Virus record (IMG/VR): IMGVR_UViG_3300037789_000060
From: a virus
DNA: 64,000 nt
Direction: 5' to 3' (one strand)
Positions 14,419 to 31,560 of this stretch are shown here, in pieces. Made by a program: the position numbers and the translations under genes. The notes below the pieces were generated by a model that did not search any database, was not told the DNA's origin, and was given only the letters and a program-made list of their open reading frames with translations. How positions within the stretch are numbered: position 1 is the first letter of the stretch; each line of letters opens with the position of its first letter.

Positions 14419-15033
14419 ATGTCCAATACAGAAGAAACAGGAACAGTAGGGAAGGGGCATAACAGTGACGCTGCTCGCGCTCTGCTTATGCATCACCTGA
14501 ATGCCATCGGGCCACTCGAGAAACAGATGGCTGCGCTCAAGGGGAAAATTGGTGCAGCCTACAAAGAAGCCAAGGTCGACGGTATCTCCAAAAAGGATAT
14601 CAAGTTCGCCCAGGATCTGCAGAAGGATCGAGACGAGCAGATGCTTGAACGTCGACGTCGCGAGACAGAGATTGCGCTTTGGTTGCAGCATCCGATCGGA
14701 ACGCAGATCGAGATGTTCGATCAGGACCGGACGCCAGTTGCCGAACGTGCGTTCGAGCAGGGAAAGAACGCCGGCATGAAGGGCGAAACCTGCAACCCAC
14801 CGCATGCTGAATCAACTGAGCAAGGCCAGAAGTGGATTGAAGGCTGGCACATCGGTCAGAAGGCCATCTTCAACATCAAGAAATCTGATCCCGAAGAGGC
14901 CACACTGCTGCGCGCTGACGAGGCCAAGGTTGAACGCACCGAAGACGATGACGCGCTCGACGAGGCTGGCGAAGAAGCATCTGAAGTGGAAGAGCCTGGG
15001 AGCGATGAACAATCCAAGGATGACGAGGACTGA
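14419..15033 (+). CDS. GapR (DUF2312)-like protein with C-terminal Rmf/CrpP-like segment
   Basis: GHNS...LEKQMAALKGKIGAAYKEAKVDGI (GapR-like); AFEQGKNAGMKGETCNPP...KWIEGWHIGQ (Rmf-like); acidic tail. Confidence 0.55.
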   Translation: MSNTEETGTVGKGHNSDAARALLMHHLNAIGPLEKQMAALKGKIGAAYKEAKVDGISKKDIKFAQDLQKDRDEQMLERRRRETEIALWLQHPIGTQIEMFDQDRTPVAERAFEQGKNAGMKGETCNPPHAESTEQGQKWIEGWHIGQKAIFNIKKSDPEEATLLRADEAKVERTEDDDALDEAGEEASEVEEPGSDEQSKDDED

Positions 15034-17801: not shown

Positions 17802-18618
17802 GCTCAAATCACTCGCCGAACGCAAGGCGCAGATGCAACGGGACCGAGCCACCCCAGAAATGCGACAGCAAAGGGTGCGTGCCAACAAAGCATTGCAACT
17901 TGCAGGCCAGCGACCCGTCGTGGTTCCGTTGTCTGGCCACTATCGGAAGTCGGACGAAAGGGAAGCTGAACGTGCAGCTTTTTACGGGCACATGAACCTG
18001 ATCTTTGGTCTTGAAGGGTGGCAGAAACCAGGTCGGTTCCAAGCGACAGGACGATCCGGCAGCCGTGATGTCGAGAAACGTAAGATACTCACCAATAATC
18101 GCAGAAGCGATATTGTGAAAGAAGATATCAACGCCGCGCCCTTTGAATGGCTATGGCGCAACAGGCGCCTTCGGTACCTGCCAGACACAGTGGACATTGA
18201 GGATATCGAAGCGGCCAGAATCCATGCCGGGATAGCCTTCCGTGAAGAATGGGAATTGGGCCAGGTCACCGAGTTGCGCAGTCCGGATTGGCTGTCAGGC
18301 GGGGGCGGTTCTTTTGGGCCCCGATCGCTGTCAGCAACCAAAGTGGAGTGCTTGTCCTCCATCGGTGAGTTGAGCCACAACATGAAGTCGATCCCTCGGA
18401 TACCTGAAATGGGTGACATCTATCTGTTCAATGTGCTCGAGGAGGTGGTCGTCAAGGACCGTTTTCTATGGCGCGGGATGAAGGGCGACGAGCACAAGAG
18501 AGCGATACGAACGGTCCTTTGTGCCCTGGATTGTGCGGCCATCCACTATGCCGCTCTTTCCTTATCGGATTTCCGTGACCTGTGGCCCGAAGTGAAATAC
18601 ATGGACCGGCCGCTTTAG
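17776..18618 (+). CDS. Putative late-gene activator (DUF6456-like C-terminal region)
   Basis: Last gene of the rightward early operon; AG..FR..WE..Q...RS.DW..GGGG pattern; GTG start inferred. Confidence 0.45.
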   Translation: MADTIPKRKLKSLAERKAQMQRDRATPEMRQQRVRANKALQLAGQRPVVVPLSGHYRKSDEREAERAAFYGHMNLIFGLEGWQKPGRFQATGRSGSRDVEKRKILTNNRRSDIVKEDINAAPFEWLWRNRRLRYLPDTVDIEDIEAARIHAGIAFREEWELGQVTELRSPDWLSGGGGSFGPRSLSATKVECLSSIGELSHNMKSIPRIPEMGDIYLFNVLEEVVVKDRFLWRGMKGDEHKRAIRTVLCALDCAAIHYAALSLSDFRDLWPEVKYMDRPL

Positions 18619-18691
18619 AAGATCTGGCGACCATAGTTGCGCGGATACTGGAAAATGTGCGAACCTGCATCAAACATTTTTGAGGACGCAC

Positions 18692-19009
18692 ATGCTTAAA
18701 CGTTACACCCATTCCATTGCGGCTGCGATTCTATGTGTGGCTGCGACTGGGCAATTGTCACAAGCAAACTCTTACAACGTGCCTGATGCAGTCTTGCAGT
18801 TGTCCGTCGCTGAATACTCAGAACTGGGAATTCTTCAGCGACGGGACATGATGCAGAGGTTGGTTGAAGCCGAGCACATTGAGTATTTTGATTTGAATGC
18901 ATGCCTTACCGAGCAAGGCTTTCGTTCAGACGCACATCAAATCAGGATGGACGCTGCGCTATTCGCCTGCGTCCGATATGCCCGGGACCGGGTCAGCACT
19001 GCTGGATGA
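18692..19009 (+). CDS. Secreted/periplasmic hypothetical protein
   Basis: Signal-peptide-like MLKRYTHSIAAAILCVAATGQLSQA; GAGG RBS. Confidence 0.6.
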   Translation: MLKRYTHSIAAAILCVAATGQLSQANSYNVPDAVLQLSVAEYSELGILQRRDMMQRLVEAEHIEYFDLNACLTEQGFRSDAHQIRMDAALFACVRYARDRVSTAG

Positions 19010-19273
19010 TCGGCGCTCAATTTCGTCATCGATGACCTTTTTGAGTACGCCGATCGCCTTTATGTAGTCTGCGTTCGTCGGGTCAAACGGCGGCAGATCA
19101 GCAAGTACGGCCGCCATTGCCAGCCGGTCCTGAAGGGTTAGCTCTCGCTTCCCCAAGGCACTCGTGCTGCTGGTGGTGATCTTCATTCCAATTTTTTCAC
19201 CGGCTTGGCTTACCTGCTTGCCGTTGAACCCGAGTAGTGACATCCAGTTCGCAAAGTCAGTTTCATTGGCCAC
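18959..19273 (-). CDS. HTH-like hypothetical protein
   Basis: DFANWMSLLGFNGKQVSQAGEKIG...RLAMAAVLADLPP; GTG start inferred. Confidence 0.55.
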   Translation of the reverse strand: MANETDFANWMSLLGFNGKQVSQAGEKIGMKITTSSTSALGKRELTLQDRLAMAAVLADLPPFDPTNADYIKAIGVLKKVIDDEIERRSSSSADPVPGISDAGE

Positions 19274-19727
19274 TTTCAAACTCTTCCATTTTTTGATCTG
19301 CAACAGCAGTGATCATTTCGAGGGTCTTGTCGTCTCGCATCATTTCAATAAAGACACTGACGGCATGCGGTATGTCCTGCATACCATCGAGCCACTTGTA
19401 AACCGTCTTTATATTCGAGCCGTAGATACGTGCAAACTCTGTAACGGAGATGTTCGCATCCTCAATAGCTCGCGAAAGTGTTTCGGGGCTTGGTCGGACA
19501 TAGCCTGAGGATCTGGGCGTTGCTGTCTGACGGCTGTTCAGGACCTCGACCAGCGTTCGAGCAGCCGCCAATTCAGCAGCAAGCTCGTTGCTGAACGTGC
19601 GGGGCCTGCCACGCTCATTGACATACGCAGGGACAAGCCCCGGTGCAGAAAATTGCCCCAGGAAACCATCGCCATCCCGAGATGGGATGGCCTTGGCAAA
19701 GAATTTCGATGAAGGTTTACGCGCCAT
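19263..19727 (-). CDS. Protein with C-terminal XRE-like HTH
   Basis: ISVTEFARIYGSNIKTVYKWLDGMQDIP. Confidence 0.7.
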   Translation of the reverse strand: MARKPSSKFFAKAIPSRDGDGFLGQFSAPGLVPAYVNERGRPRTFSNELAAELAAARTLVEVLNSRQTATPRSSGYVRPSPETLSRAIEDANISVTEFARIYGSNIKTVYKWLDGMQDIPHAVSVFIEMMRDDKTLEMITAVADQKMEEFESGQ

Positions 19728-21246
19728 TGTCGGTCTCCGGTTTCTCTAGTTTGACGATAATTGTGTTGACGTTTGTACCCACGCTGGCAAAGCTGCCATC
19801 AGGCAATTCGTGGCACCATTTATTCTGCCAATTATTGGTACTATGCTTCGCTGCGAACTTTCGGAACGCTGCAGATTTTTTCGTTTCGCGGAACTCGGTT
19901 CCAGCTGACATGATTGCAACGAGTATCCCGCCAGGCTTCAGAAATTTCCATGCGTGCATCACATGATCGATATCTCGCTCTCGGTCGAATGGTGGGTTCA
20001 TGAGTACCCGATCATAGAGACCGGTTTCATCTGGTGACAACTTCAGAAAGTCTCGATGCCAAACGTTATGGTAGATGCCGGCACTCTTCAGCCCGGCGAT
20101 CAATTCAGGTTGGATTTCGACGACGTCGACGATCGTGCCTTCTGTCTTCGCAGCCAACGATGATATGTTGCCGGAGCCCGCATTGGGCTCCAGTATCTTG
20201 ACGCCATTGTTGTTTCGGATGAAAGCATAATCATTGATCAGCCGTTGAGCCAAGCTATCGGGGGTAGGGTAGAAGCCAAAGTGTTTGGCCGGCGTGTTCT
20301 TGATGTTGTCAAACGGGTCAGCTTCCTTGGTCTGTCCGTCGCCGACCACCTCGCCGTAATATTCACCGAGAACCTTGTTGACCTTCTGCACCAGATCCTT
20401 GCGCGTGAACCAGAGATGGGCATTGCCGTTCTTGAATATCCTAATCTTGAAGAATTCACCTTCATGTTCGGACTGAAACAGGCCGCCCCATGGAATTCTG
20501 TTTTCCTTCTTATATTGTTCACGTTCATTCCTGACCTGCCGGACTAGGCTCGCATACTTGGCGGTTGGTTTGCGGTTATCAAGCAGGAGGAAGGTGCGTT
20601 CGATATCGTAGATCGTAGATTCGTGATCGCGCTGGTGGCTGTAATAGCCGTCATCGTCATAGACACGGTCGATGATGATGCGTGAACCAATCTTGAATCC
20701 GTCATGTGAGCGGAACCGACGATCGAGTTTCGAGAACACGTTGGCAATCCCGCGTTGAAAAAGCGTTTCAGACTGGGTCATGAAGCCCTGAATGGTTGCA
20801 GCGATGTTTTCCACCGAAACCTCAGGCATCCAGTCGACGTCTTCGTCACGCACAACTTCACCATCCTCTGTCGGTTTGGGTGGCGGTGTCATCAACTGAG
20901 TGCGAAGCTCTTCACGGGATTGCTTGTCCATCAGGAGCTCGAGCTCTGTCAGTTCGATAATGTACGACCAAACATTCGTATCAATGATGCGTTTCGCAAC
21001 CCGAAAGTAGAGTTCTGGGTCCGGCACAGCAACAGTGGCGTTGAAGCGCTTTATCTCTTCACCAATTGAGTGATTGAAAAAGGTCTCGGCAGTTGGCGCT
21101 GCTTCTTTCGATGCCTGTTGTGCGGCCTCGATAGCCTTCTGCGCCAGCACGGCCGCCGCATAAGCATCTTTATAGAGGTCAAGTGCAATGTCTCGCTTCT
21201 TGACGACTTCGGCGATGGTACGTTGTGGAACAACTTCGGTTTTCAT
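19717..21246 (-). CDS. DUF4942 domain plus SAM-dependent amino-DNA methyltransferase
   Basis: FSKLDRRFRSHDGFKIGSRII, IFKNGNAHLWF (DUF4942); FYPTP, ILEPNAGSG, LMNPPF, GTNVNT (methyltransferase). Confidence 0.88.
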   Translation of the reverse strand: MKTEVVPQRTIAEVVKKRDIALDLYKDAYAAAVLAQKAIEAAQQASKEAAPTAETFFNHSIGEEIKRFNATVAVPDPELYFRVAKRIIDTNVWSYIIELTELELLMDKQSREELRTQLMTPPPKPTEDGEVVRDEDVDWMPEVSVENIAATIQGFMTQSETLFQRGIANVFSKLDRRFRSHDGFKIGSRIIIDRVYDDDGYYSHQRDHESTIYDIERTFLLLDNRKPTAKYASLVRQVRNEREQYKKENRIPWGGLFQSEHEGEFFKIRIFKNGNAHLWFTRKDLVQKVNKVLGEYYGEVVGDGQTKEADPFDNIKNTPAKHFGFYPTPDSLAQRLINDYAFIRNNNGVKILEPNAGSGNISSLAAKTEGTIVDVVEIQPELIAGLKSAGIYHNVWHRDFLKLSPDETGLYDRVLMNPPFDRERDIDHVMHAWKFLKPGGILVAIMSAGTEFRETKKSAAFRKFAAKHSTNNWQNKWCHELPDGSFASVGTNVNTIIVKLEKPETDNGA

Positions 21247-21287
21247 ATTCGTTTCCTGTGTGCATGGATGCGGGGGATAGGCTGGGC

Positions 21288-21653
21288 TCAGGCGGATGCC
21301 ATAGCTTGCAGCACTCTGATTGCAGATGGCTTGTTGCAGTCAGCAATCTTGCGGAATGCAACCAGCGCTTCAGTAGATCCATCGTCCATCAGGGATGGAG
21401 CATCATCATTCAGAGAAGTGCCGGCAAACAACTGGGCAAGTGGTATATCCAGTATGTTGCAGATAGCCACGATCCTGCCGGCGGATACACGGTTGGTTCC
21501 CTTCTCATACTTTTGCAACTGTTGAAATCGAATTCCAATCTGTTCTGCAAGCTCGGTTTGGCTCAAGCCCGCCATTTTCCGGGAGACTCGGATGTTCCGT
21601 CCGACGATGGCATCTGTGGTAGTTGCGGTACGTGCGTTCATAGTGTTCGACAT
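21288..21653 (-). CDS. XRE family HTH regulator
   Basis: VGRNIR..RKMAGLSQTELAEQIGIRFQQLQKYEKGTNRVSAGR. Confidence 0.9.
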   Translation of the reverse strand: MSNTMNARTATTTDAIVGRNIRVSRKMAGLSQTELAEQIGIRFQQLQKYEKGTNRVSAGRIVAICNILDIPLAQLFAGTSLNDDAPSLMDDGSTEALVAFRKIADCNKPSAIRVLQAMASA

Positions 21654-21714
21654 GTGGTTTCCTTTGTGCATTGTTGCGGGGTAGTTGTCGCAGCGGGAAA
21701 AGCTCGAAAGCTGA

Positions 21715-22920
21715 TCACGCAGCTAATTCAAGGGCTGTTCCGAAAGGTGCTTTCGCCGCCAGCCGATCGAATTTGAGGCCGTTGCCATAGACAGCCCATA
21801 GGACCGGGCACGATGGCTCGAGACCAAAGTTGCGGACCTCTAGGTCGGTGAAGTAGATCACCGCGGACGCATCGTCTGCGTTCGCAGCAATCCACTCAAA
21901 TGTGTCGGCGAAGCTTGTGCCACCACCACCGGTGGCCGTGATGGTCAATTCTTCGCCGCTCTCGAATGTCTCAACCGATTGGACACGGGTATCGGCATAA
22001 ATAACCGTGACCTTGTCCACAGCGCCGTCTTCGAAGGCGGCTCTTATCTCTGCGGCAAATCGGTTGAGAGCATTCAAGTCGATTGAGATCGACGTATCAA
22101 CGGCGACCACGATATGTGGCACGCCATCGGCGACGGTACCGGGAAGGATAAGCCCGGCATGCAGGTAACGGCGGTTTGGCCGAGACCATGAGTAGTCGCG
22201 TGTTGTCGACTCATCGATGAATTCTCTCAAGATCGTGCGCCAGTCGATGACTGGCTTGAGTAGCGCGTCGATCATGCGCTTCATGCTGTTGCTGCTGTCT
22301 CCAATCTGATTTTTTGCAGAAAGCATCACGGCTTGTCTGACCTGCATTTTTGCTTTCGATGATGCGGCCTGCAGTTTGGCAAGTTCATGTGGTTCTGCAG
22401 CGTCCAGGACGTCGCCGCATTGGCCTGGATCGGATGACCCATTGCCTGGTGATGTGGAACCGTCTTCCTGTCCATCGCCAGCCGATGATTGCCCAGTCGT
22501 CTCATTGGCGGGCATGAGCTCATATATTGCTTCCGCTGTCATGCCATCAAACTGTGGATCATGGAGCCCGCCGGCCGGCATGTTCATGCCTTCCGAGATA
22601 AGCATGCCGTTGATGGCATAATCACACGCACGCTTCCATCTATCCATGTCTCGACCTGAACGTCTTACATGGTGCTCAAGCGCGACATGCATCACCTCGT
22701 GAGCACATGCGAATTCGAGCTCAGATGGCGTCAATTTGTCGATGAAGTCGGGGTTGTAGAAGATGCTTTCGCCATCTGTTGCGAGCGTATCGATGTTCTG
22801 GTCGTCAGTTTTCTCAACAAGAGTGAGCTGAACTGCCAGCGACCCAAAGAATGGTCGTGAAAACATCAAACCTGTCCGCGCCTGCAATAGCTTGGTCTGC
22901 GTTTGGTCCGTGGTTTGCAT
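21715..22920 (-). CDS. DUF2201 metallopeptidase-like plus VWA domain protein
   Basis: ATDG..IFYNP.F, CAHEVMHVALEH (HExxH), VAVDTSISI (MIDAS-like), GGGGTSF, YFTDL. Confidence 0.88.
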   Translation of the reverse strand: MQTTDQTQTKLLQARTGLMFSRPFFGSLAVQLTLVEKTDDQNIDTLATDGESIFYNPDFIDKLTPSELEFACAHEVMHVALEHHVRRSGRDMDRWKRACDYAINGMLISEGMNMPAGGLHDPQFDGMTAEAIYELMPANETTGQSSAGDGQEDGSTSPGNGSSDPGQCGDVLDAAEPHELAKLQAASSKAKMQVRQAVMLSAKNQIGDSSNSMKRMIDALLKPVIDWRTILREFIDESTTRDYSWSRPNRRYLHAGLILPGTVADGVPHIVVAVDTSISIDLNALNRFAAEIRAAFEDGAVDKVTVIYADTRVQSVETFESGEELTITATGGGGTSFADTFEWIAANADDASAVIYFTDLEVRNFGLEPSCPVLWAVYGNGLKFDRLAAKAPFGTALELAA

Positions 22921-22988
22921 TGTAGGTCTCCAAATTCTCATAGGTGAGGGGGCCTGTCCCACGTCGGCGGAACAGGCGTGTTGTTCAT

Positions 22989-23978
22989 TCAACCAAGAAC
23001 AATATGCTTATGACGCTGGGTCCAATCGATGAAGGTTTGGTTCTCAGTCAAAGCCTCTTCCCGTCGAGTGGCACTCAGGCAATAGAGAATTTCAAACTCA
23101 GCCTCGATCCTGCGCATGTAGGTCATGCCGGCATCAAATTCGTTTGCATTCCTGACCCGTCCTGCCAGACCATAAGCAACAGCAAATTTGCCGTCTGACT
23201 TTTGAGGCAGGCGTGCTCCTGTCGGATCGCTCAGGATGCTGGCAAGAGGCGGCAAATCCCTAAATGCGCGAATAAAGCCATCGAATTCGGCCGATGCACC
23301 TTCTCCGACAAGGCCCTTGACCATGAGAGCACGAATGTCATCCGGATTATCCAGAACCTTGTTGACCTGTGCCCATGCTCTGGGTGTCGGGAACGTGCGG
23401 TGGTCGCCACTATCCATGTTGTGCAATTGATTGGGTCTGAAATTCAGGAAGCCAATGACCATGGGGTCAATAGCTTTCTGGCTTGCCCAAGCTGTCCATG
23501 CGTCAATGTCTGGTTCAACATCGATGTGTGCGAACCTGTTTGCGAGTGCCGATGGCATCTTCTGAGCAGCTGCCCGGTCCGATTGCCGGTTTCCGGCCGC
23601 AACAATCTTCCAGCCGGCAGGCAATTCATAATCACCAACCTTGCGATCCAGAACAAGACCGAAGCACGCCGCCTGCATCATTGGTGGTGCAGCATTGAGC
23701 TCGTCGAGAAACAGGATGCCGGTCGGGCCGTCACGCTCGACGTTTGGAAGGTCCGACGGCACCAGCCACCGGGCTTTGTCGCCGTCTATGGATGGAAGGC
23801 CGCGCAGATCAACTGGATCACGCAACACGGCGCGGAAGTCGATCAAAGAGCAGTTCAGTTCCTTCGCAGCGTCCCGAACGACGTCGGACTTACCAACACC
23901 TGGCGCTCCCCAAAGAAAGGTGGGAACATCGGCTGTGATATAGGATTTGAGAACGGTTGATGCTTGTTTCAGATTCAT
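22989..23978 (-). CDS. MoxR-like AAA+ ATPase
   Basis: WGAPGVGKS, DPVDLRGLP, LFLDELNAA, AAGNRQSD, ALANRF, TPRAW. Confidence 0.9.
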   Translation of the reverse strand: MNLKQASTVLKSYITADVPTFLWGAPGVGKSDVVRDAAKELNCSLIDFRAVLRDPVDLRGLPSIDGDKARWLVPSDLPNVERDGPTGILFLDELNAAPPMMQAACFGLVLDRKVGDYELPAGWKIVAAGNRQSDRAAAQKMPSALANRFAHIDVEPDIDAWTAWASQKAIDPMVIGFLNFRPNQLHNMDSGDHRTFPTPRAWAQVNKVLDNPDDIRALMVKGLVGEGASAEFDGFIRAFRDLPPLASILSDPTGARLPQKSDGKFAVAYGLAGRVRNANEFDAGMTYMRRIEAEFEILYCLSATRREEALTENQTFIDWTQRHKHIVLG

Positions 23979-24021
23979 GATGTAGGTCTCCTGGTTGCGA
24001 TAATTCGCGGGGTTGTTGCAA

Positions 24022-24840
24022 TCAAGCAGCGGGGTCTTTGAGCATAGAGCGAGCTTCACGGATCAGGGCCATGAATGTCTCATATTCTCCCGTGAGACGT
24101 TCATCGCTCAGATCCGCTATGTATTCATCGACCGAGGCATAGTTCGCTTTGTGGCCATTGTCTGGATCGTTGAATTCATCTTCCGGGGTGGTCAAGCTCG
24201 CCAGTCTCTTGACAAGATGTACCGCATCCCAAGAAAACGGCTCGGCGGGCCGGCGCATATCAATTTCGATAGGGTCATCGTCGCCGTCGACCGCTTCAAT
24301 GTGGAAAGTCTCGTCACCCTCGATCGACATATCTTCGGTTTTCATCCAACTGAAGCAGAAATCATCCGGGCTCATGCCCCGTGCGATCTTCTCAGCGGCC
24401 TCATCATTGGCTGCCATGATGGTTGTTTGAGCCATCGCTCTCATAGTGACCCATGAGCGAACGTAATATTCGACATCATCCAATACACGCCATTTGTCGA
24501 AGTGGCCGCTGTCGATCAAGTGGTTGAGGTGGTTTTGAATGGCCGCATCTTGACCGGTGTCTTGCCACGCTTTCCAACGCGCATGCAGTTCGGCGTCGTG
24601 CTCCAGCCTGGAATTGATGAAAGGAGGATGATCAGACAGCTTTGGTCCAGATGGTGGGGCATCCAACGTGCGAATATCAAAATATGACTCGTGGTCGCTA
24701 TCTTCTGGCGCGCAGACGAAATAGAACATTGACCTTCCCTGATCAACATCGTCATCATCGTATGTGCGGTAAATTGAGACCCCTTTGCGGGACAGAACGA
24801 GCTCGGGTTTCACCTTCCGAGTTGTTGTTATATAGGGCAT
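24022..24840 (-). CDS. Acidic hypothetical protein
   Basis: 272-aa ORF with RBS and upstream hairpin motif. Confidence 0.7.
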   Translation of the reverse strand: MPYITTTRKVKPELVLSRKGVSIYRTYDDDDVDQGRSMFYFVCAPEDSDHESYFDIRTLDAPPSGPKLSDHPPFINSRLEHDAELHARWKAWQDTGQDAAIQNHLNHLIDSGHFDKWRVLDDVEYYVRSWVTMRAMAQTTIMAANDEAAEKIARGMSPDDFCFSWMKTEDMSIEGDETFHIEAVDGDDDPIEIDMRRPAEPFSWDAVHLVKRLASLTTPEDEFNDPDNGHKANYASVDEYIADLSDERLTGEYETFMALIREARSMLKDPAA

Positions 24841-24904
24841 TTAAATTTCCTTTTTGCATGGTTGCGGGGGGGGGCTTTGCCTATCTGTGATTGGCAGACA
24901 TGGA

Positions 24905-25195
24905 TCAGCTATAACTGTCGACGGGTGCGTTATTCAGAGTGGCGCTGAGAGCATCAGCATAAGCCATCGCCACGTCTTCATCGTCAAAGTTACGTTCATG
25001 TTCATCAAGAGTTGTGAAAGGTTGCTGCGGATCATCCGGTGTTTCTTTGCGGACATACACACACCATCCATCGACAGATCCATCACATTTGTCATAATGC
25101 TGCAGGTTCTCTCCGTCAGGGTCCCTGATGTGCTGGTCGTTTAGACGAATGAACGCATAAACGCAGATTGTAGTTTCGTCTTCGATCACTGGCAT
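24905..25195 (-). CDS. Hypothetical protein
   Basis: 96-aa acidic ORF coupled to the upstream gene. Confidence 0.6.
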   Translation of the reverse strand: MPVIEDETTICVYAFIRLNDQHIRDPDGENLQHYDKCDGSVDGWCVYVRKETPDDPQQPFTTLDEHERNFDDEDVAMAYADALSATLNNAPVDSYS

Positions 25196-26316
25196 GGCGC
25201 TGCCTTTTGCGCTCTTGCAGCTTCGATCACTGCCAGAGCCGTTTCATTGACATCGGGGAAATTCGACGGCTTGATGGTCGGGAAGCCACCGTATTGGAGG
25301 TGTGAGAAAATCAGCGGAATAACCTCCCAGTCGTAGGACATGGAATCGAAGATTGTACGGTCCGCATCAACGCACAGGTCATAAATTTGCAAGCACCACT
25401 TGCCGATCTCAACTGACGCGTGACGCATTTCGACTGAGCCAACATCTTGCCGCAGTTTAGTCCATTTGCAGTCGACGTCTTTGCAATCCTCCAATGTGGT
25501 CTCGTTGATGTGCTCCCAAACACATAGCGCAGCTTCCATTTCCAGATGGGAATAGAGCTTGTCATCTGGTAATTTGGATGGGTTATGGTTGGGCAGCGAC
25601 GTAAACCGGCTGGATATTTCTGGTGGTGTTGTCTGGGCTGGTTGCGATTTTGTTTTGACTGATGTTGCTCTGTCTGCAGCTGCTCGAACTTCCAGGTCGA
25701 TCACGATATCCATCAAGGCGTTCACATCATCCCCGACTGTAAGATACCCATTGTCATCACCGTTCGGGTCCCAGATGATCCAATCCCCATAATAGTTTTC
25801 GATGCGTTTGGTCATGGCGACAAAACTGATGCTGGGATGGGCGCAATCGGCAAAGTCTTCTGGGAATTCTTGCCTACGCACAACACTGAAACCGTGGTGT
25901 TCGATAAGGCTTTTCTTGGTTTCGTCTGGCTGAATGTTTTTTGGATCAAACATATCAATCGGCCCCAAGATTTCAGCCAATCTTTCATCCCTGCATACAG
26001 CCTCGCTGGTGCTTGGCGGGAATGCAGAACGAAATGACCCAAAGGCGCTACTTCGTGATTGAAAAGGACCAGCAAAGTGCTTTTGCGCCATTTCATCGGG
26101 GCCATGGGTATAAATCACGACGAATTTGCCAGCGTTTTCACGATCAATCATAGCCCGATTGAAAGGTTCCATAGGTGAGGCATACTCGTTGATAATTTCC
26201 GAATACTCGATTGAAGTGTTGCAGCTTGGGCAACGGTCATCACAAAGACAATTCCATTCGTGGGTCCATGTGACATCGCAGCTTTCGCAATGGTGCTGCT
26301 TGAGAAACCAAGTCAT
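25186..26316 (-). CDS. Multi-domain hypothetical protein with N-terminal zinc ribbon
   Basis: CESC..TW..EW.C.CDDRCPSC; start set by AGGAG spacing. Confidence 0.7.
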   Translation of the reverse strand: MTWFLKQHHCESCDVTWTHEWNCLCDDRCPSCNTSIEYSEIINEYASPMEPFNRAMIDRENAGKFVVIYTHGPDEMAQKHFAGPFQSRSSAFGSFRSAFPPSTSEAVCRDERLAEILGPIDMFDPKNIQPDETKKSLIEHHGFSVVRRQEFPEDFADCAHPSISFVAMTKRIENYYGDWIIWDPNGDDNGYLTVGDDVNALMDIVIDLEVRAAADRATSVKTKSQPAQTTPPEISSRFTSLPNHNPSKLPDDKLYSHLEMEAALCVWEHINETTLEDCKDVDCKWTKLRQDVGSVEMRHASVEIGKWCLQIYDLCVDADRTIFDSMSYDWEVIPLIFSHLQYGGFPTIKPSNFPDVNETALAVIEAARAQKAAPCQ

Positions 26317-26383
26317 TGTGTTCATCTCCTGTTTGCCATAGTCGGCAGGGACGCGGCGACCTTTCGGCCGCCGCGGTTGTGCA

Positions 26384-27289
26384 TCAGGCCAAATAGTCTT
26401 TGACGCTGTCCAGAACAGCCTGCGCGGCCTGTGCCGTCTCGGTTCTGGCTTGGGTGTTTTGGCGCAGCGTGGACGGCTCATAGCTTGTCAACGGGCGCAA
26501 CTGATTGGCCATGGCGGCGAGCTTTTCATCACCGGTGATGTTGAGGGAAGGCAGGATATTGATCAGATCCTTGACGTTCTCAACCAACGAGTCACGGAAC
26601 ACACCCTCGGGCCGCTCACCTTTCCTCGTTGCTGGCTTGTAGGCATTGAGACGTTCAACCATCCGTTCGACAACATCGGAGACGCGACGATAGACATCCC
26701 TCACTGCGTTGTCAGTAGCAGACTTCACGCTGGCCTCAATCTCTTGGCGGATTTGATCCGCTTGGGTGTCAGAGATGTTCACACGGAAGTCATCGGATGA
26801 TGGCACCGGCCAATTTGTCATGGTCATGCAGAACCGTCGCTTGATTTCGGCCTGTGTCGGGTAGTCATGCGGATTGAACAGGGCGCCCAATGCCTTTTCG
26901 CGCGCCGCGACATGCCGTTCATAATTCTGGACAAACTCATTCACGGCCTTGTCGAATGCCGTTTGCTGCTTTCGGAACCATTCGACGTGCGCCAAATATC
27001 CGGTGGCGGACATAATCCGCATTCCATCGTTTGCCCATGGCAGGGTGCGCTCGATGAAGTCGGTGCGTGTTGCGTTCACAATCGACTGGATGTCTTTCAG
27101 CGCGTCTTTCGGCAACAACAATTTGTTGTAGCGGCCGGCATCGCTATCCGCCTGGTTCGCCTGATGGATTTGATCTGTTGCGGACCGGTCATGTTTCCGG
27201 GCGGACCAGCTGCTGATTGACAAGCTGACCAACAGGGCGCGGGTAGCAAGCAGGTTTGATGCAGACAGATTCGGGGTATGAGTATTCAT
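26384..27289 (-). CDS. DUF3150-like helical protein
   Basis: LLVSLSISSWSARKHDR...LPWANDG.RI...F...V..F...Y...LFNP.DYP; lies near the MoxR/VWA pair. Confidence 0.6.
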   Translation of the reverse strand: MNTHTPNLSASNLLATRALLVSLSISSWSARKHDRSATDQIHQANQADSDAGRYNKLLLPKDALKDIQSIVNATRTDFIERTLPWANDGMRIMSATGYLAHVEWFRKQQTAFDKAVNEFVQNYERHVAAREKALGALFNPHDYPTQAEIKRRFCMTMTNWPVPSSDDFRVNISDTQADQIRQEIEASVKSATDNAVRDVYRRVSDVVERMVERLNAYKPATRKGERPEGVFRDSLVENVKDLINILPSLNITGDEKLAAMANQLRPLTSYEPSTLRQNTQARTETAQAAQAVLDSVKDYLA

Positions 27290-27380
27290 CGTTTTTCGTC
27301 TCCAAATTCGCATAATTGCGGGTTGTGGCGGTAAAGCCGTGCAGAAGATTTTAGTATGAGGGTTGAGGGGAAGGCAAGAG

Positions 27381-27551
27381 TCAGAGGCTTGTAATCAAGC
27401 AGCCGATCGGATCTGGTCGGCTCTCGCAGCTCTCTGGTGCGCTACGCTCGAGGGCGTTTGCATGGATGTCGCGTTCCGCTGTGGCATATCCCCAGGCGAA
27501 GAAAATCACGGCGACAATTGCGGACAGAAGAGCGGCTTTGATATAGGTCAT
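27381..27551 (-). CDS. Small membrane/secreted protein (56 aa, below the ORF-track cutoff)
   Basis: MTYIKAALLSAIVAVIFFAWGYATAERDIH...CESRPDPIGCLITSL; AGGAAA RBS plus hairpin motif. Confidence 0.65.
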   Translation of the reverse strand: MTYIKAALLSAIVAVIFFAWGYATAERDIHANALERSAPESCESRPDPIGCLITSL

Positions 27552-27646
27552 AATCGTTTCCTTAGGTGCATGATTGCGGGGTTTGCTGCAAGACAGGCGT
27601 GCCTGTCCGGCGTTGTCATTGCGCAGTCAGCGCAACCGATGGCGGC

Positions 27647-27961
27647 CTATCGACGGTGCCTTTCAGGCACAGTGAGCGTGACCACGGCAAGAAATTTGGT
27701 GTCGTCAATCACGACGTTGTCAGGCAAAGAGGCGTCGATATTTACAACTCCAGTCAACCCGGATCGGGCCTGCAGTTGTTTCAAGGCGCCTGGAAAAAGG
27801 GTGCTGTTTGCAATGCCGCCATAATCGCGGCTCGTGCGAAAGCTGTGCATGTCACAGTGCTTGCGAGTGAAAGCGGGCGGCTCGATATATCGATACAATT
27901 TTTCTCCCTCTGGTGAATACATTTGTTTGATTTTCGTCTTGAATGTCAGGGTCGGGCGCAT
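27647..27961 (-). CDS. Hypothetical protein
   Basis: MRPTLTFKTK... with AGGA RBS. Confidence 0.6.
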   Translation of the reverse strand: MRPTLTFKTKIKQMYSPEGEKLYRYIEPPAFTRKHCDMHSFRTSRDYGGIANSTLFPGALKQLQARSGLTGVVNIDASLPDNVVIDDTKFLAVVTLTVPERHRR

Positions 27962-27988
27962 TGTCTGTCCTGCAAAAGGGTTGGTAGG

Positions 27989-28013
27989 TTCAGGCGGGAT
28001 TGTCCCGCCTGAA
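27989..28013. other. Perfect 11-bp inverted repeat (RNA hairpin)
   Basis: TTCAGGCGGGA-TTG-TCCCGCCTGAA between the clamp gene and the next gene. Confidence 0.7.
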
Positions 28014-28032
28014 TAGGCATCACAAGCTGATC

Positions 28033-29226
28033 CTAAAGACGCATCGGCATCAAAACGGAAGTGTAAGACGGCAATTCGGGCGAGCGGATTAGGACCGGGC
28101 AAAGCGGCGCATTTTCTTCTGTCCCATAGTGAAAAGTAACGCTGTCGCATGTGAAGCATGACAGGGCGTCAATCAGATACTGAAGGTTATATCCAACGGC
28201 GAAATCAAACCCGCCATTCCACTGGCAACCAATGGAAATTTCCGCGCCTCGGTAGCTGAAGGTGGTACGGTCGGCGGTGATTTCCATTGTCACCTTTCCA
28301 TCACGCTCGACCTGAAACTGATTGAGGTGTTTGGCGAGGTTCAAAATCTCTTGCCTGTTGAATATGACAGCTTGCCCGGTTTCGGACGGAATGACGCGCT
28401 GATAGTCAGGGTAAGACCCGTCAACAACATATGCGGACAGCACAAATTCATCATCCAATTCGATATGCATGCGATGGCGCATCTGCAGGAAACGCACCGT
28501 GCCGTTGCAATTCTTTTTGTTGATCAGTTTCAGCAATGTCTTGATGGAATGCGCATTAAGAATCGCGTTGTTTTCAATAAGCGAGCCTTCCAAATCAGTC
28601 GGCATCGTATCGCGGCAAAGCCGGTGCCCGTCGGTTGAAACCAGAGACAGGCGGGACGGCTGGCTTTCCGACGATTCATTTGCGAAACAAACGCCGCGCA
28701 GATAGTAACGAGATTCGTCATCCGACATGGACACTGCAACGCGATCAAGCGCCGTTTTCAAGTCATATGCAGGAATTTCAAATCTGGTGAATTCATGGTT
28801 TTTGAGGGCGAAATGATGCAAATCGTCCGCGTATTCGGTGCGATCCGGACCTTTCACCAGCTGCACCTTCATTGCGTCAAGCTGCATTGTGATATCCGGG
28901 CCGGTGTCGGTGAATGTTACCGATGGGCATTTTGCGGCCTTGATCAGTTTCAACAGGCTTTTGCAGTGCAGGCTGAAAGAAACCGGTGCATCAATTCGGC
29001 ATTCCACAAAGCACTTGATCGCGTTATCGGGTGACGTGGCCATGAGCTCGAGCCCAAAAGGGCGCGAACGGATAAACGCATGGTGGTAAATCGGGTGATC
29101 TTTGCGGTTGGCGCGCGGGATCACCAGCGCAAGCTTTTTGAGGGCGTCAAGCAGATCGATGCGGGGCAACGTGACAGTTGGGGCAACAACGGCGGATTCG
29201 GTTTCAATTGGGGAAAGTGCATTCAT
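28033..29226 (-). CDS. dnaN: DNA polymerase III beta sliding clamp homolog
   Basis: DESRYYLRGV, VSTDGHRL, GSYPDYQRVIP, GYNLQYLIDAL, C-terminal VLMPMRL; 397 aa. Confidence 0.88.
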   Translation of the reverse strand: MNALSPIETESAVVAPTVTLPRIDLLDALKKLALVIPRANRKDHPIYHHAFIRSRPFGLELMATSPDNAIKCFVECRIDAPVSFSLHCKSLLKLIKAAKCPSVTFTDTGPDITMQLDAMKVQLVKGPDRTEYADDLHHFALKNHEFTRFEIPAYDLKTALDRVAVSMSDDESRYYLRGVCFANESSESQPSRLSLVSTDGHRLCRDTMPTDLEGSLIENNAILNAHSIKTLLKLINKKNCNGTVRFLQMRHRMHIELDDEFVLSAYVVDGSYPDYQRVIPSETGQAVIFNRQEILNLAKHLNQFQVERDGKVTMEITADRTTFSYRGAEISIGCQWNGGFDFAVGYNLQYLIDALSCFTCDSVTFHYGTEENAPLCPVLIRSPELPSYTSVLMPMRL

Positions 29227-29284
29227 TTTTCGGTATCCTGTGTTTGCATAAATGCGGGTTTTGGGGATGGTGTTTCCGGGCCGG

Positions 29285-29548
29285 TCAATCGCCGAATTCG
29301 GCAAAAGATGGGTCAGCGCGCGGCATTTCGGCACGTTCAACGGAATGGTGCATGCATGCGGATTGCCAGATTTTGTCAATATCCCACCCTTGCGCATCGG
29401 CCAGGTGGCGGAAATTTGCAAACAGGTCAATCAGCGCGGTTTCATCGCAGTTGGTTTCTTGGCCGCCGGTCAAAATGAAGGCTGACAAGGCCGTGTTTGC
29501 GTCTCGAGCGCGCCCGTTATTGTCGCGCACATTGCTTGAATTTGTCAT
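29285..29548 (-). CDS. Conserved phage hypothetical protein
   Basis: ALIDLFANFRHLADAQGWD...A.MHH..E. Confidence 0.7.
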   Translation of the reverse strand: MTNSSNVRDNNGRARDANTALSAFILTGGQETNCDETALIDLFANFRHLADAQGWDIDKIWQSACMHHSVERAEMPRADPSFAEFGD

Positions 29549-29648
29549 GCAGTTGTATCCTATGGTGCATGGTTGCGGGATTGCGACGGCACGCGGATTC
29601 GCGCACCGTCACGGAAAAATCGCGGTTGAATTGAGCCGGATTTAGGCC

Positions 29649-29801
29649 TTAGGCGGCCTGGTGCTGCATGTTGGCTGGCAACACTCTGATAGTGGCCAGC
29701 GCTTTCCTTGCATCATCCGCTGCGCGAATATATTCGGCGATATCATCGCGGAATTCTGCGCGTTGTTTTTGGGCGAAAGTCTCAAAATATGGATGTTTCA
29801 T
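29649..29801 (-). CDS. Small hypothetical protein (50 aa)
   Basis: MKHPYFETFAQKQRAEFRDDIAEYIRAADDARKALATIRVLPANMQHQAA; AGGAAA RBS plus hairpin motif. Confidence 0.6.
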   Translation of the reverse strand: MKHPYFETFAQKQRAEFRDDIAEYIRAADDARKALATIRVLPANMQHQAA

Positions 29802-29908
29802 GAGGGTTTCCTATGGTGCATAAATGCGGGTTTCGGCCTGCCATGGCCATCATCAGTGCATCGGCAATCAGATGCAGACCCGCGCCGGATAAATCCGGCG
29901 CATTGGTG

Positions 29909-30382
29909 CTATTCGGAATCGGTGTTTTCGGTTTCAGCCGGTACCAGAGCTTTCAACGCTTGGACCAATTCGGCGTTTGCCTCTTTTTTGGTGGCACGTT
30001 CCGCAAGCTTCACAATTTCCGCCACCAGATCAAAAGCCTTTTCCGTGCCGTCATCTGATTTCTGGAAGTCAAAAGGATGCACGGCGCAGGCGTCATCAAT
30101 TTTCGTGCTGGAATTTTTCCGGAATTTGTAAGCCTTTGTTTCATCATCGAAAACAACTTTGCCATGAGCTTCTGCCCATGCACGCATACGCTTGACGTTT
30201 GCGCCTTGTGGCAATGCCGCATCGAGTTTTGACAAAACGGTAACATCGCCATGAGCCTCAATGTGCGCAAGGCAAGACACTGCAGCTTTGTGAATGTCAG
30301 CGCGCAGTTTTTTGCCACGATTTGCAATTGAGTTGATTGCAGCGTTGATAGCTTCCGAACCGGTCAAAAGTTTAAAAGTCAT
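29909..30382 (-). CDS. Conserved phage early protein, first gene of the accessory operon
   Basis: I.SIANRGKKL...I..AAVS.L.HIE.HGDVTV...L..ALP; AAGGA RBS plus hairpin motif. Confidence 0.75.
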   Translation of the reverse strand: MTFKLLTGSEAINAAINSIANRGKKLRADIHKAAVSCLAHIEAHGDVTVLSKLDAALPQGANVKRMRAWAEAHGKVVFDDETKAYKFRKNSSTKIDDACAVHPFDFQKSDDGTEKAFDLVAEIVKLAERATKKEANAELVQALKALVPAETENTDSE

Positions 30383-30762
30383 TGTCTGTATCCTTTGTTT
30401 GCATGATTGCGGGTTTTTCAGTCTTAACAACTGAACGAGATGCACGGCACCAGATTGCGCCGTGCAGCCTTTTCAATTGTTATGTGTTTACTTTATCGTT
30501 GCTTTGTTTCAGCCACTGTCATGTTCCCACCTATCGGCTTTAGCATGCCACCTTGCGGCTTTATGCTGACTGACTGATTTTTGTTAACGCTTGGGTTTTT
30601 GGCCAGTTTGCAAGCATTCTAAAACCCGCTTTGACCGCCCGAAATCAGACACCGAAACCGCATATAGCGACACCGGCACCGGCTGGAATTCCACCAACGC
30701 ACCCGCGGAATTTACCGTTCCGCTTCGTTTCCGCATTCCGCCTTGCTTTCGGCCTGCTAGAC

Positions 30763-30777
30763 TTAACAGTTTGTTAA
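30763..30777. promoter_or_regulatory. TTAA-N7-TTAA box (CtrA-box-like)
   Basis: TTAACAGTTTGTTAA in the intergenic region. Confidence 0.55.
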
Positions 30778-30904
30778 ATCCGTTTGGTATTCCCGTCTAA
30801 TAGACTGCAATACTCACAAGACAGCGCTTGAAACTACTCCCTAATTTGCCGTGGCCTTTATGGCTAGAATGGCTTGCCCTAGGTGCCGGGCTATCGTGAT
30901 TATG

Positions 30905-30932
30905 AATATAACGAATTTTGGCTTTTATGCAA
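30905..30932 (-). promoter_or_regulatory. Putative sigma70 promoter driving the accessory operon
   Basis: Minus strand TTGCAT-N16-TATATT in an AT-rich tract. Confidence 0.5.
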
Positions 30933-31269
30933 TAGCAAATAACAAAAAACGTCATATAAAAGCGAATAAATCACGTTTTTTATCTTTATCTGCCACGTTG
31001 GAATTTTGAAAATTTCAGCGCTAGGGATTGCCAAGCTGAAAAATCCGAGTCACATATTCGGCGAATCATGAAACACGCGCAAAAAAGAATCACGGTTGGC
31101 AAGCCATAGTTTCCGTGCTGACAATATTCCGCCTGGCATGATTTCACTTTCACAACGATTGCAGATTTGAAGCCGGTTTACTTCTGGCAACATTTGCCAC
31201 GCCGATTTGTGACCGGGCAACGGAACGCCCGGCGATAGCCGCAACCAATGCCGCGCAACAATGCGACGT

Positions 31270-31560
31270 TGCCAGCAACACCAGCACGGCGACAGATTGA
31301 TCTGGTACGCAATCAGTTGAAAATTCAGCGCGCAGCGCTGGGATGGAAAGCATTTCACGCCCGATGCGGCGCGCGCTGGTGACTGGTGGCGGTTGCGACA
31401 GTCAGGGCACAAGACAACGCTGCCAAGCGTGCCGGGCTTGCCTTGTGGCTTGCACCGTTGCCAGCGTGGCTATAACCGCCACCAGCGCGGCAACCAGCAA
31501 CCGGGCGAGCTGACAATGCCAGCGCTTGCCAGCGTCGCAGCGATTGCCCGGCATGCCAGC
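31270..31560 (+). repeat. Five TGCCAGC repeats plus related GCAAC/TGGCAA words
   Basis: Copies at 31270, 31459, 31517, 31527 and 31554. Confidence 0.65.

Follow-up and report, generated by a model that had tools for sequence, protein, structure and literature searches.

Small hairpins read by phage proteins are exemplified by the MS2 coat-protein hairpin and by lambda N/boxB, in which the bases of a 4-5 nt loop and the closing pairs are recognised, and related phages carry matched protein-hairpin specificities. In T4, RegA and RegB exert regulon-wide post-transcriptional control of many early genes via sites in the ribosome-binding region, which are unstructured motifs at the Shine-Dalgarno sequence or the AUG. 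The T4 PeSL elements are repeated in the early region, flank variable genes and contain a sigma-70 early promoter. Cluster K phages carry the SAS, a 13-bp consensus (GGGATAGGAGCCC, up to 2 mismatches) located 3-8 bp before the start codon at the position of the ribosome-binding site, and its role in the phage is still to be established (PMC3203893). The ESAS elements of the same cluster are imperfect 17-bp inverted repeats with a variable spacer of 4-13 bp, whose departures, according to the authors, do not support RNA pairing (PMC3203893).

The element described here is a small hairpin repeated in the genome of a temperate alphaproteobacterial phage, of which a stretch of 64,000 nt (the window) was analysed. 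Its position ahead of many genes and its constant co-occurrence with one unstudied phage protein make it look like a previously undescribed operon-wide control element. Judging from sequence comparison, the best reading, to which a probability of about 45% is given, is that the small RNA hairpin in the 5' untranslated regions serves as a multi-copy operator, with the protein F9 as the best candidate reader.

The repeated element and its gene block

All 12 copies proposed in the sequence-only reading were recovered by pattern matches and by covariance-model scores, each on the minus (mRNA) strand and all between 21236 and 30421 (Table 1). The pattern CCCGCANNNATGCA is matched exactly by eight of them, where ~0.03 matches would be expected by chance, and by one further copy with a single mismatch. 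With a covariance model trained on 37 copies, the 12 score 26-42 bits and the next best match on both strands of the 64 kb scores 12 bits. The 3' end of the hairpin lies 13-19 nt ahead of the start codon and 3-6 nt ahead of AGGA or GGAG. In the eight canonical copies the stem consists of 3 bp only (GCA/UGC), with the flanking C and A unpaired; such 3-bp stems are marginally stable on their own.

Table 1. Hairpin copies in the window, the block that carries them and the candidate reader
Feature	Position	Strand	Hairpin	Bits	Gene or description
Copy 1	30400..30413	-	CCC-GCA-AUCA-UGC	35.2	ahead of 29909-30382 (157 aa, family F4, first gene of block)
Copy 2	29817..29830	-	GCA-UUUA-UGC	40.4	ahead of 29649-29801 (50 aa)
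Copy 3	29566..29579	-	GCA-ACCA-UGC	26.4	ahead of 29285-29548 (87 aa)
Copy 4	29245..29258	-	GCA-UUUA-UGC	34	ahead of 28033-29226 (DNA polymerase III beta-clamp homologue)
Copy 5	27567..27580	-	GCA-AUCA-UGC	41.9	ahead of 27381-27551 (56 aa)
Copy 6	27309..27322	-	CGCA-AUUA-UGCG, 4 bp	39.3	ahead of 26384-27289 (F1, DUF3150-like, 301 aa)
Copy 7	26334..26350	-	UGCCG-ACUA-UGGCA, 5 bp, G·U closing pair	29.2	ahead of 25186-26316/26325
Copy 8	24855..24868	-	GCA-ACCA-UGC	37.9	ahead of 24022-24840 (272 aa)
Copy 9	23997..24011	-	GCGA-AUUA-UCGC, stem swapped	40.4	ahead of 22989-23978 (MoxR-type AAA ATPase)
Copy 10	22937..22950	-	CUCA-CCUA-UGAG, stem swapped	32.6	ahead of 21715-22920 (DUF2201 metallopeptidase/VWA, N4 gp25-like)
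Copy 11	21667..21680	-	GCA-ACAA-UGC	27.8	ahead of 21288-21653 (XRE helix-turn-helix, 121 aa)
Copy 12	21261..21274	-	GCA-UCCA-UGC	36.2	ahead of 19717-21246 (DUF4942 methyltransferase, F7)
Gene block	18959..30480	-			16 genes, leftward; carries all 12 copies
F9	19263..19727	-			154 aa; N-terminal beta-sheet/helix domain, basic linker, C-terminal XRE helix-turn-helix

The block comprises 16 genes, fewer than the about 20 accessory genes first suggested. Four of them have no motif, and three of these are translationally coupled, so that the proposal that coupled genes lack the hairpin accounts for those three; it leaves aside gene 27647-27961, where the 71 nt of intergenic sequence before the gene contain a GC hairpin and no motif.

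Across copies the order of parts is a C-run, a stem of 3-5 bp, a tetraloop, a spacer of 6±1 nt, GGAGA, 4-9 nt (mostly 5-6) and ATG, with the consensus C-run/NNCR-ANYA-UGNN/6 nt/GGAGA and AUCA (general form ANYA) as the tetraloop. The loop-side pairs of the stem are C-G followed by an A-U or G·U closing pair. Of 116 copies, 111 have 5-7 nt between the 3' end of the hairpin and GGA, 92 are followed by GGAGA as the Shine-Dalgarno sequence and 107 by ATG as the start codon. The flanks are depleted in G, and the spacer is G-free and A/C-rich. A small conserved hairpin with invariant bases in the loop and closing pair, as seen here, is what characterises protein-bound RNA operators of the MS2 or boxB type.

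The element occurs 9-16 times per genome in ~25 related phages and prophages whose core proteins are only 40-55% identical. The search of relatives proposed in the sequence-only reading places it, as a shared and repeated feature, in a single phage lineage. It is kept ahead of orthologous genes at this level of protein identity. A given site can have stems that differ between phages and are each compensated, and the copies before orthologous genes show independent divergence, not homogenisation. The motif is confined to three contigs of an Ensifer host genome and is not genome-wide. No Rfam family matches it: in a cmscan of 18500-31500 at E <= 1 the sole match was a chance hit to isrK elsewhere in the region (21 bits; gathering score 50).

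Covariation and strand

The stem was examined in two sets of copies. The first comprises 77 copies, collected with a pattern that made no pairing demand at the two outer stem positions; here pair -3/+3 is G-C in 41, C-G in 33, U-A in 2 and U·G in 1, with no mismatch, where independence would give a paired fraction of 49% (P ~1e-24). In 82 further copies, from genomes left out of model building, the same pair is G-C in 48, C-G in 27 and U-A in 5, with none unpaired; the overall paired fraction amounts to 94.7%, where shuffles give 71.7% and 0 of 500 reach the observed value. The two covarying stem pairs, at positions 12/21 and 11/22, are G-C, C-G or U-A with no exception, and the covariation for which a covariance-model check had been proposed is strong.

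When the closing pair was left free in 18 genomes, it was A-T in 101 copies, G·T in 19 and A·C in 1. The earlier argument that the G·U pair of one window copy forms on the mRNA strand only is therefore correct and generalises. The motif also lies in the sense of the gene in 127 of 127 matches in 80 related IMG/VR loci. Flawless covariation together with the asymmetry of the wobble pairs points to a hairpin of the sense strand, not a symmetric dsDNA operator, and the sequence data support the view that it is a structured element of that strand. The RNA and the non-template DNA strand share their sequence, and sequence analysis therefore cannot separate action at the RNA from action at the DNA.

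The candidate reader and alternative explanations

All type-A copies carry A as loop base 4. This base is G in 14/14, 13/14, 9/14 and 10/13 candidate copies of four other phages, in 6 of 8 copies in L098 and 3 of 4 in G060, and one phage is mixed. As all or most copies in some lineages have changed this base together and one phage protein co-occurs with the hairpin, a trans-acting reader is plausible. That protein is F9, whose gene is translationally coupled to that of F7. It is full-length in all hairpin-bearing genomes tested (~24) and in 0 of 31 hairpin-free relatives, and in profiling from three reference genomes it is the only protein whose presence follows that of the hairpin, which makes it the candidate reader. 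Three phylogenetically independent contrasts agree in pairing the hairpin with F9 (p = 0.25, n = 3 putting significance out of reach), one of them being a phage nested inside the hairpin clade that has lost the hairpins and F9 jointly. Column 81, in the linker of F9, holds Arg in all six G-type phages but in none of the 14 type-A sequences inspected, a correlation resting on about three lineages. The C-terminal domain has structural matches to Aca10, HigA2 and MqsA (Z 8-10), and MqsA is the best match of the whole protein.

In the proposed mechanism, a sequence-specific factor would bind the C-run together with the two inner pairs and base 4 of the loop, and its binding at the 5' edge of the ribosome landing site would set the translation of 10-16 genes together, along with the survival of their mRNAs. 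F9 would be this factor; the cistron that yields it is the last in the block to carry a motif, which would give feedback shut-off. We infer the action at the RNA level, the binding of F9 to the hairpin and the direction of the effect. It is judged improbable that F9, an XRE-family helix-turn-helix protein, binds RNA and thereby represses translation across the regulon; in that case its basic interdomain linker would read a 12-nt hairpin ahead of 10-16 cistrons, and a single Thr/Gln-to-Arg change in F9, matched to A-to-G in every operator, would have reset the specificity. The XRE helix-turn-helix class binds dsDNA and is not known to bind RNA.

The sequence-only reading had proposed an RNA structure rather than a DNA operator, shared as a site by an RNA-binding protein or by an endonuclease, with putative processing at the CCC, and had named a dsDNA site for an XRE regulator as the case against it. 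The shared site, its non-symmetric sense-strand structure and the plausibility of a reader have held up, through the covariation, the wobble pairs, the joint change of the loop base and the co-occurrence of F9. The sole candidate reader, however, is itself an XRE helix-turn-helix protein, and DNA-level control by F9 therefore stands as a rival, which is judged improbable but survives best among the alternatives. The motif would then be an oriented multi-copy operator within the operon, similar to a stoperator, that silences or times the block; possibly F9 captures a hairpin of the non-template strand in the transcription bubble, like RfaH with ops. Contact of Arg with G is a classic protein-DNA contact and MqsA binds a short palindrome, and both count for this explanation, as do the two-domain architecture of F9 with a bona fide XRE helix-turn-helix and its perfect co-occurrence with the motif. 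The copies are also intergenic and in a single orientation, as are stoperators, which are read by a monomeric two-domain repressor (PMC9283540, PMC3203893). Reading of dsDNA, however, gives no reason for complementarity at 12/21 and 11/22 with changing identity (77 + 82 copies, 0 mismatches), and a symmetric dimer would tolerate A14-to-G and T19-to-C alike, where the counts are 19 against 1. A roadblock needs no fixed register of 6±1 nt to the Shine-Dalgarno sequence. As for the transcription bubble, a 4-bp DNA hairpin is very unstable, and we know of no helix-turn-helix protein that reads a hairpin of the non-template strand.

It is also rather unlikely that the element is a cis-acting leader module with no dedicated factor. 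In that case the hairpin would shield a strong, unstructured ribosome-binding site from the sequence ahead of it, or would form a cap at the 5' end of the downstream cistron once a host RNase has cut, and the preceding GC hairpin would guard the 3' end of the upstream cistron as operon punctuation. The surroundings of the copies suit such a module. Just upstream of the C-run, 8 of the 12 intergenic regions of the block have a strong GC-rich hairpin with no U-tract, and the 60 nt upstream of the copies fold more stably than random 60-mers do (mean -19.4 kcal/mol, with -16.6 for the random set; p = 1e-5), the structure stopping 1-8 nt short of the C-run. The G-free, A/C-rich flanks and the uniformly strong Shine-Dalgarno sequence and ATG fit as well, and 5'-terminal stem-loops stabilise bacterial mRNAs. 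Structure alone, however, gives no account of why one C-G pair is invariant, why the closing pair is R-U, why A1 and A4 of the loop and the C-run are kept, why loop base 4 went from A to G genome-wide in some lineages, or why the nested lineage lost every hairpin together with F9. The element itself differs from an intrinsic terminator, a GC-rich stem with a U-tract, in that an A/C spacer follows the hairpin; 13 terminator-like sites were found against 14.5 expected, none at a motif copy.

Use of the element mainly as micro-homology for the swapping of gene cassettes, as proposed for the T4 PeSL elements, is very improbable. The block is mosaic between relatives, with many lineage-specific genes carrying the motif, and the phage encodes RecT and an exonuclease. 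The presence of a 96-aa gene differs between this phage and the near-identical phage L088 (92-95% identical); at the right edge of this gene-sized indel the two align again from 24874, in the C-run exactly at the 5' edge of copy 8. The cassette-shuffling claim, which draws on this single junction and on one side of it only, is weak, and gene-sized indels end beside gene starts anyway. Recombination needs neither base-pair covariation nor a loop consensus nor a fixed register to the Shine-Dalgarno sequence, and orthologous copies have diverged independently.

Equally remote is a phage-specific promoter that would make each gene a separate transcription unit: the conserved, oriented block of 14-30 nt ahead of each gene, often after a hairpin that could be a terminator, and the resemblance of GGAGAC to the start of T7-type transcripts would suit it, but these upstream hairpins have no U-tracts, the spacing to GGAG shifts by 1-3 nt and stem bases change freely if paired, unlike in a promoter, sigma-70 promoter-like sites are not enriched (12 against 10.5 expected, 0 at motif copies), and no T7-like RNA polymerase domain was found among the window proteins scanned or, as weak evidence given that the control genomes of that search also had no match, in the complete relatives G001 and G002 (PF00940).

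Comparison with known systems

The multi-copy RNA operator proposed here resembles several described systems in part. With T4 RegA/RegB it shares sites at the ribosome-binding regions of many genes, but those sites are unstructured and the present element is structured. The sigma-70 early promoter that lies by the PeSL stem-loop is found at none of the copies.

The Cluster K SAS and the present element are alike in being multi-copy (11-19 SAS per genome), in one orientation, in the non-structural region and ahead of start codons (PMC3203893). They also share the preference for ATG, the absence from the host, the retention before orthologous genes and lineage-specific variants of the consensus. 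The SAS, however, is the ribosome-binding site itself (GGGATAGGAGCCC), whereas 6 nt separate the conserved block of the present element from the Shine-Dalgarno sequence downstream, and the SAS and ESAS are unrelated to it in sequence, hosts (here Alphaproteobacteria) and phage lineage. Unlike the ESAS, the present element has arms of 3-5 bp, a loop of constant length (4 nt) and perfect compensation.

The stoperators of mycobacteriophage L5 and Cluster A are likewise present in many oriented intergenic copies with one two-domain helix-turn-helix reader of the phage (PMC9283540). L5 stoperators, where the phage immunity repressor binds and blocks elongation, are asymmetric dsDNA sites in which no pairing is required, whereas the stem covariation and G·U asymmetry of the present element indicate a folded single strand, with complementarity at three pairs in 100% of copies; as for a repressor, what is seen here is co-occurrence with the helix-turn-helix protein F9. 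As far as we know, stoperators have no fixed register to the ribosome-binding site.

MS2 and boxB have one or two sites per genome, against 10-16 here, each before a different gene, and their readers are a coat protein or a free-standing arginine-rich peptide, whereas the candidate here is an XRE helix-turn-helix protein. Cognate binding of the MS2/boxB type, which affects translation or antitermination, is suggested indirectly, in that the loop base has switched across whole lineages and F9 has an Arg to match. If F9 does read the RNA through its linker, the hairpin would belong to the first RNA-operator system built on the XRE DNA-binding fold, and together with F9 it would form a natural, programmable protein-hairpin pair.

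Gene block and hairpin copies in the window

The window, with a GC content of 52%, represents a tailed phage of temperate type; among its proteins are a terminase and a portal of lambda type, RecT, DnaB, and GcrA-like and XRE proteins. The portals closest to its own are those of Rhodobacter phages, at 44% identity. In a leftward block of 16 genes, 12 genes are preceded by a mini-hairpin element. The sequence-only reading had placed such an element before the Shine-Dalgarno of 12 genes, and all 12 copies are confirmed and located on the mRNA strand. The sequence CCCGCANNNATGCA is exact in eight copies, against ~0.03 expected, and occurs with a single mismatch in one further copy; in the other three the stems are swapped (CUCA/UGAG, GCGA/UCGC and UGCCG/UGGCA). 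The 12 window copies score 26-42 bits with a covariance model trained on 37 copies, and the rest of the 64 kb, on both strands, scores 12 bits or less. An Rfam search gave no match to the element, megablast of the hairpin region against phage records gave none either, and IMG/VR single-protein searches with the clamp and with the VWA protein returned no relatives.

Features of the window and their coordinates (nt); hairpin copies are numbered from the highest coordinate down
Feature	Coordinates	Strand
Leftward block of 16 genes	~30480 to 18959	minus
Hairpin copies 1-12	30413 down to 21261	minus
F4, first block gene	29909-30382	
F1-F2-F3 trio	21715-27289	
F1, DUF3150-like	26384-27289	
F2, MoxR AAA	22989-23978	
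F3, DUF2201 metallopeptidase/VWA	21715-22920	
F7, DUF4942 methyltransferase	19717-21246	minus
F9, XRE helix-turn-helix protein	19263-19727	minus
Stem-loop before copy 1	30414-30480	minus
Intergenic region without element	27962-28032	
Gene of 104 aa	27647-27961	
Gene of 96 aa	24905-25195	
Segment replaced in L088 (431 nt; 132 nt at L088:11986-12117)	24875-25305	
Orphan hairpin	31252-31265	plus
Protein with RMF match	14419-15033	plus

From its 5' end, the element has A/C-rich sequence free of G that leads into a C-run, then a stem N-N-C-R, a loop A-(U/C)-(C/U)-A, a 3' arm U-G-N-N, an A/C-rich spacer, GGAGA and, after a gap of 4-9 nt, the ATG, which in hairpin-bearing genes is often followed by an A-rich codon. 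The register is narrow: of 116 copies, 111 have 5-7 nt between the 3' end of the hairpin and GGA, 92 have GGAGA as their Shine-Dalgarno and 107 have an ATG start. About half of the copies have a far stronger GC hairpin, lacking a U-tract, 1-8 nt upstream of the C-run. Several other readings of this anatomy were rejected. A sequestering helix between CCC and the GG of the Shine-Dalgarno is predicted in only 1-2 copies, and CCC is unable to pair with GGAG. An upstream ORF starting at the invariant AUG has no Shine-Dalgarno and an inconsistent frame, and by-eye comparison found no fit to the consensus of sigma-54, ECF-sigma, CtrA, GcrA/GANTC or LexA boxes.

Other structures lie in and around the block. 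Only one long intergenic stretch of the block lacks the element; in it, the 104-aa gene has an ordinary ribosome-binding site preceded by a strong GC hairpin. Although no gene lies upstream of copy 1, a 58-nt stem-loop of great stability (-34 kcal/mol) stands before it, so that the block has a long structured leader. An orphan hairpin, CGCA-ACAA-TGCG, in the ~950-bp non-coding region between divergent blocks has neither C-run nor Shine-Dalgarno and scores only 7 bits with the covariance model. Elsewhere, one protein has a ribosome-modulation-factor (RMF) Pfam match barely over the cut-off (28.4 vs 27.9 bits); it is found in relatives with and without the hairpin and thus shows no correlation with the element.

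Distribution and base pairing of the family

Most matches of an initial strict DNA pattern were single and due to chance, and two contigs with three core matches each led to the family. Two IMG/VR proviruses detected by the DNA pattern and one Ensifer contig, from a prophage of Ensifer sp. MPMI2T, reached via the F1 protein encode orthologues only ~50% identical to the window proteins, with the same element before the orthologous genes. With further pattern and protein searches the family grew to ~25 (pro)phage genomes, each carrying 9-16 copies. The model gave 127 matches in 80 IMG/VR loci that encode F1 homologues, every one in gene sense (127/127) and all confined to one part of the family; 233 kb of equally distant Roseibium and Pseudovibrio relatives contain none, and in an Ensifer host genome the motif is limited to three contigs. 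F1 homologues number more than 875, mostly in Rhizobiales prophages and metagenomes, the named Rhizobiales being Ensifer, Rhizobium, Shinella, Mesorhizobium, Aurantimonas, Bartonella and Pseudovibrio. The gene order of the F1-F2-F3 trio is kept in all relatives, hairpin-bearing or hairpin-free, and F3 is N4 gp25-like (31% identity).

Stem pairs are counted outward from the loop. In 77 copies detected without demanding the two outer stem pairs, pair -3/+3 is G-C in 41, C-G in 33, U-A in 2 and U·G in 1, with no mismatch, where independence predicts 49% pairing. Pair -4/+4 of the same copies is G-C in 39, C-G in 19, U-A in 3 and G·U in 1, and 13 further copies of the set have a plain 3-bp stem with the flanking C and A at these positions. 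Among 82 copies from genomes that did not enter model training, -3/+3 is G-C in 48, C-G in 27, U-A in 5 and never unpaired; the pair inward of it is C-G in 80/80 and the closing pair, next to the loop, is A-U in 67 and G·U in 13. With the closing pair unconstrained, 18 genomes give 101 A-T, 19 G·T and 1 A·C. Mixed half-sites and mirror substitution, expected of a symmetric dimer on double-stranded DNA, are both absent, which indicates that the sense strand pairs. On this covariation the element is a folded single strand. The earlier claim of an RNA structure rather than a DNA operator thus holds as far as sense-strand pairing and the lack of a symmetric dimer pattern go, mRNA and the non-template DNA strand being identical to sequence analysis.

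F9 as candidate reader and the alternatives

Presence/absence profiling from three reference genomes returned a single protein, F9, which is full-length in all of the ~24 hairpin-bearing genomes tested and in 0/31 hairpin-free relatives, three of which have a generic helix-turn-helix fragment only. On an F1+F2+F3 tree, the hairpin and F9 states each require three changes, and the three independent contrasts, one of them a Roseibium phage nested within the hairpin clade and lacking both, are all concordant, a number too few for significance (p = 0.25). Two other candidates were rejected: F4, which several hairpin-bearing phages lack and which hairpin-free Pseudovibrio phages have, and a 56-aa ORF with a perfect presence pattern, which is an off-frame artefact inside the terminase gene.

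The loop carries a lineage-wide switch. In type-A genomes loop position 4 is A in every copy, and in the G-type phages it is G in 14/14 (L104), 13/14 (L106), 6/8 (L098), 10/13 (L113, the remaining three A), 3/4 (G060) and 9/14 (G054, some remaining copies resembling false positives) candidate copies. One genome, G063 (IMGVR_UViG_3300046616_000348; loci L216 and L217), has five loops of each type and may represent an intermediate or relaxed-specificity state. Because stems drift independently at orthologous sites and the switched loop positions are fixed per genome, selection by a trans-acting factor is favoured over homogenisation, and a reader of the element is implied. F9 belongs to no Pfam or NCBIfam family. 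Its AlphaFold model (pLDDT 85.5) combines an N-terminal beta-sheet-plus-helix domain and a linker with an XRE helix-turn-helix at the C-terminus. This last part, which matches Aca10, HigA2 and MqsA at Z 8-10, is the only domain confidently identified by fold searches; whole-protein matches (MqsA-, HicB- and NE0471-like) are weak. The linker, SRTxDTRKAGGYxR, is conserved, basic and of low model confidence. Column 81 of the alignment, residue 67 in the window F9, falls within it: the residue is Arg in 6/6 G-type phages of about three lineages and Leu in G063, and the 14 type-A sequences inspected have Thr, Gln, Val or Pro. A hairpin copy also lies in the leader of F7, to which F9 is translationally coupled, and a feedback loop is therefore possible.

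The favoured reading, with a probability of about 45%, is that the element would be an RNA operator read by F9, mainly because the sense strand pairs and the hairpin keeps an exact distance to the ribosome-binding site. Its chief rival, which appears unlikely, is that F9 acts at the DNA level. The helix-turn-helix class of F9 is DNA-binding, and in stoperators (PMC9283540; PMC3203893) a two-domain repressor reads multiple intergenic copies of an oriented site, but this reading leaves the covariation unexplained. Less probable still is a factor-free leader or punctuation module. It accounts for the hairpins upstream and for the strength of the start region, but not for the invariance of certain bases, the switch of the loop across whole lineages or the loss of hairpins and F9 together. 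A recombination role is very improbable and draws on one datum: L088, a phage from a Logan assembly (92-95% identical), lacks the 96-aa gene, and homology resumes exactly at copy 8; its version of the 379-aa protein has a different C-terminus. The cassette shuffling proposed earlier fits this one junction and is otherwise only a minor reading. A promoter is equally improbable; neither sigma-70 promoters nor intrinsic terminators were found in excess.

Relation to known gene-start repeats

If F9 binds RNA, the known scope of XRE helix-turn-helix proteins would widen, and synthetic operons would gain a compact orthogonal hairpin-protein pair; should it bind DNA instead, the conservation of the hairpin would still call for an explanation. 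In both cases the annotation of Rhizobiales prophages gains a new family of the Rfam type. The Rfam and literature searches made here found no description of it, though one may exist elsewhere. The nearest described elements are the SAS/ESAS of Cluster K mycobacteriophages, which resemble the present element in copy number, orientation and gene-start association and likewise have lineage-specific variants, but differ in sequence and position, and for which RNA pairing is unsupported according to their authors. The Cluster K SAS have been known as gene-start repeats since 2011, with no verified function as of 2025. The present family is the cleanest case of gene-start repeats that could be found, and its hundreds of copies, flawless covariation, exact ribosome-binding-site register, natural specificity variants and single candidate partner protein together make the question of function directly testable.
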